Of a DNA stretch of 59,097 bases, positions 15,977 to 24,409 are shown one piece after another. Source of the DNA: Alphaproteobacteria bacterium (lineage in GTDB: Bacteria > Pseudomonadota > Alphaproteobacteria > Methylaequorales > Methylaequoraceae); NCBI GenBank assembly GCA_045563015.1, contig JBJKUQ010000001.1:1-59097 (forward strand), written 5' to 3'. Positions within the stretch are counted from its first letter, which is position 1, and each line of letters opens with the position of its first letter. The position numbers and the translations under genes are program-made. The notes below the pieces were generated by a model, which was given only the letters and a program-made list of their open reading frames with translations, was not told the origin of the DNA and did no database searches.

Positions 15977-16139
15977 TTTTTTTTATAACCATAATGCTAA
16001 TTTCTTGTTCAGAACACTTAAATTTTTCAATCGCGTTTTTAATCGCAATTAATTTAGCATCAGATTTTTCGCTTGCATATATATATTCGCTATCTTTTCC
16101 ATAGATTGATATTTCTAATTCAACCAAATACCAAAACAT
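15963..16139 (-). CDS. Small hypothetical protein, 58 aa (not in ORF track)
   Basis: ATG overlaps the symporter stop (TAATG); MFWYLVELEISIYGKDSEYIYASEKSDAKLIAIKNAIEKFKCSEQEISIMVIKKINHN* fills the gap to pyrC. Confidence 0.45.
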   Translation of the reverse strand: MFWYLVELEISIYGKDSEYIYASEKSDAKLIAIKNAIEKFKCSEQEISIMVIKKINHN

Positions 16140-17345
16140 TATTTTTCTTTTTTATTAATAACAAGTGTTACCATTGCATCTCCAGTAACATTTAAAGCTG
16201 TTCTTATCATATCTAAAATTCTATCAACACCCATAACAATAGCAATTCCCTCTAAAGGTAGACCAACTTGTGTTAAGACCATTCCTAGCATAATAATCCC
16301 AACACCTGGAACACCTGCAGTTCCAATTGATGCCAGAGTAGCGGTCAAAATTATTGAAAGAAAATCGGTCAAGAGTAATTCAATATTATAAATATTTGCT
16401 ATAAAAATTGTTGCCATTCCTTGCATAATAGCTGTTCCATCCATATTGATTGTGGCACCTAATGGAACAGTAAACGATGAGACTTTTTTTTTAACCCTAA
16501 AATTTTTATTGAGGTTTTCCAGAGTTACAGGAATTGTTGCACTACTACTTGATGTTGAAAAAGCAAATAATACTATTTCTTTAACCCCATTTAAAAATTT
16601 TAAAATACTAATACCTCCGAAAATTTTAACAAATGGTAAATATACAAAACTTAGTTGAATCAGAATAACTGTTACAACGCCAAAAAAATATTTTAAAAGT
16701 TCTATTATTGATGATATTCCCTGAGTTGCGAATGTCTTAGAAATAAGACAAAAAATTCCTATAGGTGCGATAATCATTAAAGCTGATAACATTTTTAAAA
16801 CAAGAGCATTCATACCTTCAAAAAAGTTAAGTAGAAAAGTTTTCTTTTCTAAACCAGATAAACAAGTGCCTAATAAAAGTGCAAAAAATATCACTTGTAA
16901 CATATTTCCTTCAGTGAGAGATTTAAATGGGTTGTCAGGGATAATATTCAAAATTACCTCTAAGAAAGTGGGTGCCTCTTTTATATTTATTGATTCATTG
17001 CTTATTGAAATATTTATTTCCTCCCCTGGGTTTATTATATATCCAATAAAAAGAGACAGAGTTATGGCAAATAAAGTTGTTATTAAATATAAGCATATAG
17101 TTTTAATTCCAATCCTTCCAATTGAGGATATATCGTTTAGATTGGCAACACCTGTTAACAGAGAAAACTATTGGAACAACAAGCATCTTTATGATTTTAA
17201 GAAAAATATTACCTCCAAACTCTAAAATTATAGTTGATGTATCAAAAAAATTAGGTAGTAAGTTTGATAATAAATTAAGTGAAATTCCAAAAATTATTCC
17301 GAAAAAGAAACTTAAAAAGATTTTTTTTGTTAAATCATTCTTCAT
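16139..17345 (-). CDS. Dicarboxylate/amino acid:cation symporter (DAACS, GltP-like); frameshift near 17161-17168
   Basis: The 17103-17345 and 16139-16951 ORFs join through an open frame: FLKIIKMLVVPIVF / LLTGVANL..GRIG; STSSSSAT, GATINMDGTA, GTAGVPG, DRILDMIRTALNVTGD. Confidence 0.9.
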
Positions 17346-17351
17346 ATATAA

Positions 17352-17425
17352 TGGTGCCCTCTACTGGTTACGCTCCAGTGGCTGAGTCTTACCAAGACCC
17401 TGTTTTACTATTAAACTAAGAGGAC
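17352..17425 (-). tRNA. tRNA-Thr(GGT), non-canonical D- and T-loops, encoded CCA
   Basis: GTCCTCT TA GTTT-AATAGTA-AAAC A GGGTC-TTGGTAA-GACTC AGCC ACTGG-AGCGTAA-CCAGT AGAGGGC A CCA (74 nt). All four stems pair; anticodon GGT. Confidence 0.88.
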
Positions 17426-17473
17426 AAAAATTTCTACAATATTTATAATTAAAAAAAACCATAAATCAATTAA

Positions 17474-17494
17474 TTAACCCTGACCTAGGGTTAA
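17474..17494 (-). terminator. Hairpin just downstream of the glutamate synthase-family gene (possible terminator)
   Basis: TTAACCCT-GACCT-AGGGTTAA perfect 8-bp inverted repeat; the U-tract is weak. Confidence 0.4.
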
Positions 17495-17499
17495 ATAGG

Positions 17500-19119
17500 T
17501 TAAATAGATCCTGGAATATAATTAAAACTTTTAGACGAAACTTTATTCCAGTAAACATCAAGTCTTGGGTCAGCTATTTCTTTTTTTCCTTTTTTAAGTA
17601 GTTCTCCTTTTTCGGCTCTTGGATAAATTTGATCAGCAAGTCTTATTTCACTTTCTGAAAGTCTTCTAACTATATGACGTCTATTAAGTTGTTCTGGGTG
17701 GTTTACTCCAACGGACTCCAGTAATTCTTTGAGAACAAATAATGTATTTTGATGAAAGTTTAACGCTCTCTTCGCTCTGTCATCAATATCAATTGCTCTA
17801 TATCTCATTGGGTCCATTGTTGCTATACCAGTTGGACATTCCCCGGTATGACAAGATCTGCATTGAATACAACCAATCGCAAACATAAATGGTCTAGCCA
17901 TATTTATCCAATCTGCACCAAGTGCACACATATGAGCTATATCAAATGCAGAAACAACTTTTCCGGACGCACCAATTTTAATTCTTTTCCTTAAATTTGA
18001 ACCTACTAATGCATTATCAACAAAAATTAATGCATCTTTTAGAGGACAACCTATATGATCGGTAAATTCAACAGGTGCTGCACCTGTTCCTCCCTCTGAT
18101 CCATCAACTGTTATAAAATCTATATATTTTTTTTCTTCTACCATAGTCTTGACAATTGATATTAGTTCCCAAGGGTGACCCACACAGAGCTTGATACCAA
18201 CAGGTTTTCCGCCTGATAATTTTCTTAGCTTTTCAACAAACTTAAGTAATTGGGTTGGGTTTGAAAACTCTTTATGTTTGGCAGGAGAGATACAATCTTT
18301 CCCAGCTTCAATTCCTCTTGTCATTGCGATTTCATTAGTCACCTTTGGAGCTAAAAGCATACCACCATGTCCTGGTTTTGCGCCTTGACTAAGTTTAATT
18401 TCAATCATCTTAACTTGCTTTTTCTGAGATTTAGAAGCGAATGTTTTAGGACAAAAGTTGCCGTTTTTATCTCTACATCCAAAATATCCAGTTGATATTT
18501 GCCAGATTGCATCTCCATTTCCTTTCTCATGATAAGGAGATAATGAACCCTCACCTGTATTATGTGCAAATCGACCCATTTTTGCAGCTTGATTAAGTGC
18601 TGTAATTGCAGGTGGAGATATTGCACCGAAAGATGTTCCAGAAATATTTAGCACAGACATTTCATAATTTTTTTTTCCAGAACCAACCTTTACTCTGAAA
18701 TCATTATTTTCAATATGAGACGGCGTTATTGAATGGTTTAACCAAACAAAGTCATTTTCATAAAATTTTTCAAGGGACCCAAAGGGCCTAACTCCACCTT
18801 CATTTTTTGACCTTTGATAAACCATAGATCGCTGATTTCTGGAGTAGGGTACCTCATCATCGTCAGATTCCCAATAATATTGTCTTAATTCAGGTCTAAT
18901 ACTCTCTAAAAAAAATCTAAACCTTCCTAGAAGTGGAAAGTTTGAAAGGATTGACCTTTTCTTTTGAAGAAAGTCTTTGAGCGATATTAAAAAAAGAACA
19001 AGTGAAGGAAAAAATATTAGTAGGAATATATTTATATAAAATGATAAAAAAAGCGAAAATGTCGAAATTATTGCAGTATAAACTAGAAGTGAATATCTTC
19101 CCCAAATTATTTCTCTCAT
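17500..19119 (-). CDS. FMN-binding glutamate synthase family protein (stand-alone, N-terminal TM segments)
   Basis: NTGEG, EIKLSQGAKPGHGG, KPVGIK, ITVDGSEGGTGAAP, LGADWINMAR, CIQCRSCHTGECPTGIAT (Fe-S). Confidence 0.9.
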   Translation of the reverse strand: MREIIWGRYSLLVYTAIISTFSLFLSFYINIFLLIFFPSLVLFLISLKDFLQKKRSILSNFPLLGRFRFFLESIRPELRQYYWESDDDEVPYSRNQRSMVYQRSKNEGGVRPFGSLEKFYENDFVWLNHSITPSHIENNDFRVKVGSGKKNYEMSVLNISGTSFGAISPPAITALNQAAKMGRFAHNTGEGSLSPYHEKGNGDAIWQISTGYFGCRDKNGNFCPKTFASKSQKKQVKMIEIKLSQGAKPGHGGMLLAPKVTNEIAMTRGIEAGKDCISPAKHKEFSNPTQLLKFVEKLRKLSGGKPVGIKLCVGHPWELISIVKTMVEEKKYIDFITVDGSEGGTGAAPVEFTDHIGCPLKDALIFVDNALVGSNLRKRIKIGASGKVVSAFDIAHMCALGADWINMARPFMFAIGCIQCRSCHTGECPTGIATMDPMRYRAIDIDDRAKRALNFHQNTLFVLKELLESVGVNHPEQLNRRHIVRRLSESEIRLADQIYPRAEKGELLKKGKKEIADPRLDVYWNKVSSKSFNYIPGSI

Positions 19120-24333: not shown

Positions 24334-24409
24334 GCCCAGGTAGCTCAGTTGGTAGAGCAAGCGACTGAAAATCGCTGTGTCGGTGGTTCAATTCCTCCCC
24401 TGGGCACCA
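24334..24409 (+). tRNA. tRNA-Phe(GAA), canonical, encoded CCA
   Basis: GCCCAGGTAGCTCAGTTGGTAGAGCAAGCGACTGAAAATCGCTGTGTCGGTGGTTCAATTCCTCCCCTGGGCACCA (76 nt). Confidence 0.98.

Follow-up and report, generated by a model that had tools for sequence, protein, structure and literature searches.

We found that the window, by which we mean the whole stretch of 59,097 nucleotides analysed here, encodes a tRNA-Thr(GGU) in which the consensus elbow nucleotides G18, U54, U55 and A58 are absent and A18, A54, G55 and U58 stand in their places. Judged from the comparisons given below, this is most probably (about 85%) an ordinary elongator tRNA, which would be charged by the single ThrRS of the cell and would read ACU and ACC on the ribosome by way of an alternative, compensated elbow. 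G18, U54, Psi55 and A58 are taught as near-invariant in tRNA, and tRNA-finding programs, structural models and the enzymes of modification all rely on them. The present findings are evidence that a bacterial housekeeping tRNA can swap all four of these nucleotides at once in a compensated manner, and the occurrence of the same elbow in SAR11 bacteria and in phages turns what could seem a single oddity into a recurrent design. Such a recurrent alternative elbow on a proteinogenic tRNA-Thr is apparently undescribed: no description of an A18:G55/A54:U58 elbow was found in the literature searched, it is not mentioned in reviews that treat the tRNA elbow and non-canonical tRNAs or in the paper on SAR11 tRNA signatures, and the only remark in a study of T-loops is that various pairs are possible at loop positions 1–5.

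The tRNA-Thr(GGU) gene and its fold

The window is contig 1 of an assembly of 1.1 Mb in 24 contigs (≈28% G+C, 76% completeness), the named public matches being uncultured marine Alphaproteobacteria represented by single-cell genomes and metagenome bins. ARAGORN called two tRNAs in the window, tRNA-Thr(GGU) at 17352–17425 on the (−) strand and tRNA-Phe(GAA) at 24334–24409. The features of the former are as follows.

17352..17425, (−) strand: tRNA-Thr(GGU) gene, 74 nt, CCA encoded (ARAGORN; Rfam RF00005)
17424, (−) strand: position 2, a U (U2.G71) in this genome only, relatives having C2-G71 (comparison with relatives)
17406..17412, (−) strand: D-loop AAUAGUA (A14 A15 U16 A18 G19 U20 A21; direct reading)
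17391..17393, (−) strand: anticodon GGU within the loop UUGGUAA (U33, A37; ARAGORN and direct reading)
17368..17374, (−) strand: T-loop AGCGUAA (A54 G55 C56 G57 U58 A59 A60) with closing pair G53-C61 (direct reading)
17352..17354, (−) strand: 3′ CCA, encoded, after the discriminator A73 (direct reading)

Divided into its structural segments, the tRNA reads GUCCUCU UA GUUU AAUAGUA AAAC A GGGUC UUGGUAA GACUC AGCC ACUGG AGCGUAA CCAGU AGAGGGC A CCA. It forms a 7/4/5/5 cloverleaf with all 21 of 21 stem pairs, those of the T-stem being A49-U65, C50-G64, U51-A63, G52-C62 and G53-C61, and the minimum-free-energy fold is this same cloverleaf (−21.8 kcal/mol, z −1.75). Consensus nucleotides U8, A14, G19, U33, A37, C56 and purine 57 are retained, and the variable loop has 4 nt (AGCC), giving the combination A15/C48. 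An earlier, sequence-only reading of this DNA had described the fully paired stems and the encoded CCA, the D-loop AATAGTA (A18) and T-loop AGCGTAA (A54, G55, U58), the retained G19-C56 and U8-A14 contacts and the T-stem pairs A49-U65 and U51-A63, and all of this was confirmed by ARAGORN and by direct reading of the sequence.

With the Rfam tRNA model RF00005 the gene scored 44.6 bits (E 1.4e-8; cut-off 29), as compared with 69.2 bits for the tRNA-Phe of the same window, a comparison of the kind that the sequence-only reading had proposed, and a default-filter Rfam run on the whole window overlooked it. It nonetheless has the stems, the 7-nt anticodon loop, U33, purine 37 and the above-cut-off score of an elongator tRNA of class I under RF00005. 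E. coli ThrRS uses as identity set the anticodon nucleotides G35 and U36 and the acceptor pairs G1-C72 and C2-G71, of which G35, U36 and G1-C72 are present in the window copy, with U2.G71 instead of C2-G71. Canonical tRNA-Thr(GGU), exemplified by E. coli thrT and its alphaproteobacterial orthologues, shares with it the loop UUGGUAA, G1-C72, A73-CCA, the cloverleaf dimensions and the same slot beside Thr(UGU), and the alphaproteobacterial outgroup genes also share the 7-nt D-loop. The window tRNA differs from the canonical one in having A18, A54, G55 and U58 for G18, U54, U55 and A58, which leaves no possibility of m5U54 or Psi55, in the 4-nt rather than 5-nt variable loop (A15/C48), in an AT-rich D-stem, and in U2.G71 where canonical genes and all of its relatives have C2-G71.

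The canonical elbow is defined by the stack A58-G18-G57-G19-C56 together with the G18-Psi55 contact (PMC4810234). In the window tRNA, A18:G55 would take the place of G18:Psi55 and A54:U58 that of the U54:A58 reverse-Hoogsteen pair, so that the two inner contacts would be replaced pairwise, with the outer G19:C56 platform, purine 57 and U8:A14 kept. We infer the three-dimensional geometry of this tRNA, as well as its charging, EF-Tu binding and expression; with G19:C56, U8:A14 and the purine at 57 unchanged, the tRNA should still be L-shaped and present to RNase P and the ribosome the flat outer face that they read.

Conservation, locus and two forms of the elbow

A DNA search found tRNA-Thr(GGU) in 22 relatives from eight genera with 100% identity over positions 3–74, in an order that comprises a single family with 14 genera. 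U2 occurs in the window copy alone, the 33 further copies observed in the order all having C2-G71; U20 is replaced by C in one lineage, and another additionally has the 50-64 pair changed from C-G to G-C, which is compensatory. With a covariance model made from the variants, the gene was recovered from 34 of the 42 genomes in the order, among them every one of the nine of high quality. Across eight variants, 21 of 21 stem pairs were paired in every sequence and seven pairs had changes on both sides. The DNA upstream of the gene is not conserved within the genus and is unalignable between genera, and the adjoining symporter has 57–69% amino-acid identity among genomes with an identical tRNA. 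Between the window's genome and a 98%-complete relative (G016), tRNA-Thr(GGU) has one difference, as compared with 0–6 differences in 19 ordinary tRNAs.

The tRNA-Thr(GGU) gene is thus real and under strong purifying selection: the identity across genera, next to unalignable flanks and a diverged symporter, excludes both sequencing error and decay, and conservation together with covariation rules out a chance cloverleaf. That the paired changes reflect selection rather than decay or a read error, as had been proposed from the sequence, is borne out by this cross-genus conservation and by the covariation of positions 18/55 and 54/58 in phage tRNAs described below, and the search of relatives called for in the same reading returned the same tRNA in eight genera, not canonical loops. 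The window copy itself might be slightly impaired, or the assembly locally imperfect, in view of U2.G71 and the frameshift in the next gene. That gene and a possible promoter are located as follows.

16139..17345, (−) strand: DAACS-type amino-acid/cation symporter gene, frame broken (ORFs, three-frame translation, nucleotide alignment)
17442..17469, (−) strand: candidate sigma-70-like promoter, weak (TTGATT 17469–17464, 16 nt, TATAAA 17447–17442), ≈17 nt before the tRNA

The order of tRNA and symporter is conserved across the order, the symporter ATG lying 6 nt past the tRNA CCA in the window and 1–9 nt past it in all genomes with the same elbow. The acceptor 3′ strand of the tRNA contains GAGGG at Shine–Dalgarno distance from this ATG (17343–17365; relatives at loci L002–L024). 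The short distance and the position of GAGGG together suggest co-transcription of tRNA and symporter, with the 5′ end of the mRNA made by tRNA processing. In the window a 5-nt deletion near 17160 (break 17151–17174), relative to same-genus relatives in which the gene is intact at 403 aa, leaves the symporter as two ORFs (80 aa and 270 aa). Either the gene is truly a pseudogene here or the assembly is wrong at this point. As for the promoter TTGATT..TATAAA that had been considered plausible from the sequence, the hexamers are indeed present, but the candidate was not called by a promoter scan, such matches are expected by chance at 3.4 per 700 nt in AT-rich DNA, and the upstream DNA is not conserved. 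Further upstream, a hairpin AACCCU-AGGUC-AGGGUU (17476–17492, (−) strand) lies just past the stop codon of a glutamate-synthase-like gene (17500–19119), of which it may be the terminator, though no U-run follows directly.

The tRNA-Thr(GGU) of the order exists in two forms. Form A, with D-loop AAUAGUA and T-loop AGCGUAA, was found in eight genera, and form B, having D-loop AAUGGUA with G18 kept and T-arm UCCUG-GUCAGUA-CAGGG (G54, U55, C56, G58), in four genera. Both forms lie upstream of the same symporter gene, and in a symporter tree they are split by a single branch with support 100/100, which fits the elbow having changed once at this locus within the order. Form B (G18, U55, G54/G58; GUCAGUA) is the older form, and alphaproteobacterial outgroups have a canonical Thr(GGU) with D-loop AGUGGUA, a 5-nt variable loop and T-loop UUCGAUC. 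Since positions 8–42, the 5′ half, are nearly identical between the two forms, the locus is the same and no close phage homologue was found in the collections searched, we favour, from these alignments, a scenario in which the gene would have changed in place, or would have had its 3′ half replaced, rather than the acquisition of an entire phage gene. Transfer between marine lineages may also be part of the history of this elbow, because the form B T-loop is common to SAR11 Thr(GGU), and AG-914-G18, labelled Pelagibacteraceae, has a form-A-like Thr(GGU).

The same elbow in SAR11 bacteria and in phages

When genome contigs were scanned for the AAUAGUA/AGCGUAA elbow pattern together with CCA, the matches were mostly from Pelagibacteraceae. 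The 9-mer GAGCGUAAC occurs together with the same D-loop in the Val and His tRNAs of SAR11, and at least 105 tRNAs of phages share the combination. The SAR11 matches were tRNA-Val(GAC) and, in some strains, tRNA-His(GUG), the latter being missed by ARAGORN (loci L253–L329). The complete SAR11 genome nBUS_33 (G066) gave 30 tRNAs. The double swap is on its tRNA-Val(GAC), no other GAC isoacceptor having been found, and A18:G55 (AGGAGUA/UGCGAAU) is on the single tRNA-Phe found; the loop of Thr(GGU) is GUCAGUA (G54/G58), as in form B. In the SAR11 isolate HIMB1412 (G067), with 32 tRNAs, the only tRNA-His among them carries an identical AAUAGUA/AGCGUAA elbow. Because tRNA-His is indispensable to the cell, the elbow is, by analogy, compatible with charging, EF-Tu and the ribosome, and as G18, U54, U55 and A58 are all absent from the one tRNA-His found in that isolate, their loss from the window tRNA is that of a consensus feature and not of a functional requirement.

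The SAR11 tRNA-Val(GAC) and tRNA-His(GUG) resemble the window tRNA in having D-loop AAUAGUA, T-loop AGCGUAA and G53-C61 closing, and also in being chromosomal housekeeping tRNAs of streamlined, AT-rich marine alphaproteobacteria, but they have other amino-acid identities, whereas the SAR11 Thr(GGU), unlike that of the window, mostly has GUCAGUA (G54/G58) or a canonical loop. From these SAR11 tRNAs and the phage tRNAs described next, we defined the module of A18:G55 plus A54:U58, and the window tRNA has all that goes with it: AAUAGUA, AGCGUAA with G53-C61, G19/C56, a 4-nt variable loop ending in C and a length of about 74 nt. An alternative elbow had been proposed as one of two explanations in the sequence-only reading, and that much is supported; the qualifier ‘lineage-specific’ proved too narrow, the module being recurrent in SAR11 and phages.

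A viral scan with the pattern AATAGTA-N30/31-GAGCGTAAC matched at least 120 IMG/VR contigs. Among the matches listed, 105 of 126 were compatible with a cloverleaf, with U33 in 104 of those 105 (loci L133–L252). These 105 tRNAs carried 17 anticodons, 87 of them were of 74 nt with a 4-nt variable loop, and C48 was present in 77. Two of the viral tRNAs listed have the amber suppressor anticodon CUA. A control scan for viral Thr(GGU) with an AGCGUAA T-loop, which specified equally many bases but took the Thr anticodon loop as its anchor, produced 37 matches, all of them coding sequence and none a tRNA. ARAGORN calls about one quarter of the listed viral tRNAs with this elbow and misses about three quarters, so the phage tRNA counts are probably underestimates. 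Annotated examples are found in Pseudomonas phage Astolliot, in which the tRNA-Val loop is AUCGUAA and the tRNA-Met loop AUCGUUA. The tRNAs of such phage arrays (IMG/VR; Astolliot Val and Met) are, like that of the window, mostly of 74 nt with a 4-nt variable loop usually ending in C and often an encoded CCA; unlike it they are viral accessory tRNAs with many anticodons, the best being about 70% identical to it among the matches listed. BLAST of the window tRNA against 50,697 phage genomes gave partial matches only, none of them homologous over the full length.

Covariation was analysed in 899 unique ARAGORN tRNAs from the viral loci, leaving out those matched by the search pattern. At 18 × 55 the combinations were G:U 705, A:G 126, G:G 5 and A:U 17 (Fisher p 2e-124, 899 phage tRNAs), and at 54 × 58 they were U:A 815, A:U 54, U:U 1, A:A 9 and G:G 6 (Fisher p 2e-75, 899 phage tRNAs), frequencies that are enriched, and p-values that overstate independence, since the loci were chosen for one alternative-elbow tRNA and the sequences share descent. 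Despite this sampling, it is clear that mixed states at 18/55 and at 54/58 are nearly absent. The two swaps are separable, A18:G55 alone being found in 90 of the 899 tRNAs, A54:U58 alone in 29 and both in 23; C56 is retained in 861 of 899, and the G54/G58 state of form B recurs. The covariation thereby upholds the view, put forward from the window alone, of reciprocal compensated changes at tertiary contacts. It also constitutes a natural test set for elbow folding, with which one can examine the demands that RNase P, the ribosome, TruB and TrmA make on the elbow.

Alternative-elbow tRNAs are under-annotated, and genomes may look as if they were missing a tRNA, since ARAGORN fails on the tRNA-His of SAR11 and on some three quarters of those from viruses, and default Rfam filters miss the gene in the full window. 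A 2026 preprint on 135 Pelagibacter genomes, in which tRNAscan-SE scored some as being without tRNA-His, fits such a detection problem, given that ARAGORN misses the tRNA-His with this elbow.

With regards to modification of the T-loop, A54 and G55 are not convertible to m5U54 or Psi55. Searches with narrow HMM models did not detect TrmA/TrmFO in the window's genome (G000), in its relatives G016 and G010 or in the SAR11 genomes G066 and G067, with MnmG-like matches only below the cut-off; TruB is present in the window's order, whereas it was not detected by such a search in the two SAR11 genomes. Loss of the enzymes that read the T-loop sequence might have relaxed the constraint to one on the fold only. 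It is conceivable, though we consider it rather doubtful, that this is a distinct tRNA architecture without need for T-loop modification (7-nt D-loop, 4-nt variable loop), having arisen or spread where modification enzymes are missing or, as in phages, where it pays to evade host enzymes or nucleases that read T-Psi-C, and that on Thr(GGU) it is adaptive rather than the outcome of neutral compensated drift.

Decoding role and alternative explanations

In the relative G016, which is 98% complete, there are 38 tRNAs, every four-codon box being served by a GNN and a UNN tRNA, one of each, and the Thr set consists only of a canonical Thr(UGU) and the alternative-elbow Thr(GGU). The check for other Thr isoacceptors proposed in the sequence-only reading thus gave a canonical Thr(UGU) and no canonical Thr(GGU) in this genome, which contained no second GGU or CGU tRNA, and no second Thr(GGU) was found across the order with the covariance model. 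In the window's genome, ARAGORN found 22 tRNAs, the 21 others all having canonical GG and UUC loops, and no further Thr tRNA in this 76%-complete assembly. Among 563 long ORFs of that genome, ACU accounted for 39% and ACC for 9% of Thr codons, together 48%, and this usage is indistinguishable from that of GCU/GCC, CCU/CCC and UCU/UCC, boxes with canonical tRNAs. By standard wobble, the alternative-elbow Thr(GGU) is therefore the only ACY reader in G016, in a proteinogenic slot with normally used codons. An unmodified U34, or cmo5U, on Thr(UGU) can in principle allow all four ACN codons to be read, so the designation as sole ACY reader rests on the standard wobble rules. One ThrRS per genome was found in five genomes; in the same number MprF (PF09924) was found in none (0/5), and FemAB (PF02388) gave a single marginal match of 29 bits in one (1/5).

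These results bear directly on whether the tRNA is a specialised, non-proteinogenic Thr donor in the manner of staphylococcal tRNA-Gly, with an elbow and weak T-stem that keep EF-Tu away, as the sequence-only reading had suggested, Fem- and MprF-type transferases being among the things it proposed to look for. The loss of G18 and U54/U55, the T-stem pairs A49-U65 and U51-A63 and the fact that tRNA-Thr(GGU) is the lowest-scoring tRNA of its genome would agree with such a role. However, as the sole GGU isoacceptor it has no proteinogenic twin, the ACY codons are not avoided, there is one ThrRS per genome, MprF is lacking and FemAB marginal as just given, and the same elbow is carried both by the one tRNA-His that the SAR11 isolate yielded and by tRNAs of phages and SAR11 in which the T-stem is G-C-rich, so that the non-ribosomal reading is not supported and we regard it as extremely improbable. 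The non-proteinogenic tRNA-Gly species of staphylococci are extra copies beside proteinogenic isoacceptors and serve FemXAB. The window tRNA is like them in its lost D- and T-loop consensus and A-U pairs in the T-stem, and unlike them in having no twin, no conserved Fem, a kept G19:C56 and pairwise compensated changes. Equally improbable is that the gene is a decaying or non-functional relic, its job taken over by superwobble of Thr(UGU): the low model score, the missing ‘universal’ nucleotides and, in the window's genome, U2.G71 next to a frameshifted neighbour could be taken that way, but the sequence is identical in eight genera with flanks that are unalignable and a neighbouring protein only about 60% identical, the stem changes are compensatory, and the gene is kept in 9/9 high-quality genomes. 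Metazoan mitochondrial type II tRNAs, which are without G18/G19 and the T-Psi-C consensus, yet translate (PMC7609411); they lose the interaction of D-loop and T-loop entirely, whereas the window tRNA keeps G19:C56 and has the other two contacts swapped in a covarying manner.

Two further explanations concern the locus and the origin of the gene. The adjacency of tRNA and symporter in all form A genomes and the GAGGG of the acceptor strand in front of the ATG could mean that the tRNA acts chiefly in cis on the downstream symporter gene, as a tRNA-like leader or a processing signal; but in four form B genomes a small ORF separates the two, no symporter follows the homologous tRNA in SAR11, the decoding slot would otherwise be empty, and in the window the tRNA keeps 73 of 74 positions beside a frameshifted symporter. 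As a chief function we hold this to be very unlikely, a secondary role of the tRNA in co-transcription or processing of the symporter being possible. Slightly less remote, albeit still unlikely, is replacement of the native thrT-type gene by one captured from a phage, to which the module typical of phage arrays (AAUAGUA 7-nt D-loop, 4-nt variable loop ending in C, AGCGUAA, 74 nt) and an AT-rich body unlike that of most host tRNAs would point. Against it stand the lack of a close viral homologue, the best match being about 70% identical among those listed, the near identity of positions 8–42 in both elbow forms at the same locus, and the older form being common to SAR11. An elongator tRNA-Thr(GGU) with an alternative, compensated elbow, probably changed in place, is consequently the reading that we prefer.

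The covariance-model search across the order also gave one additional match, in G017, as a candidate second Thr(GGU), which turned out to be tRNA-Arg(CCU). The tRNA-Arg(CCU) genes of the window's genome (G000, contig C21:40685–40758, (−) strand; without encoded CCA) and of G016 (locus L077) have an unusually AT-rich body, with D-arm AGUUAAACUGGAUAUAAU, together with loops that are the canonical GG and UUCGA.
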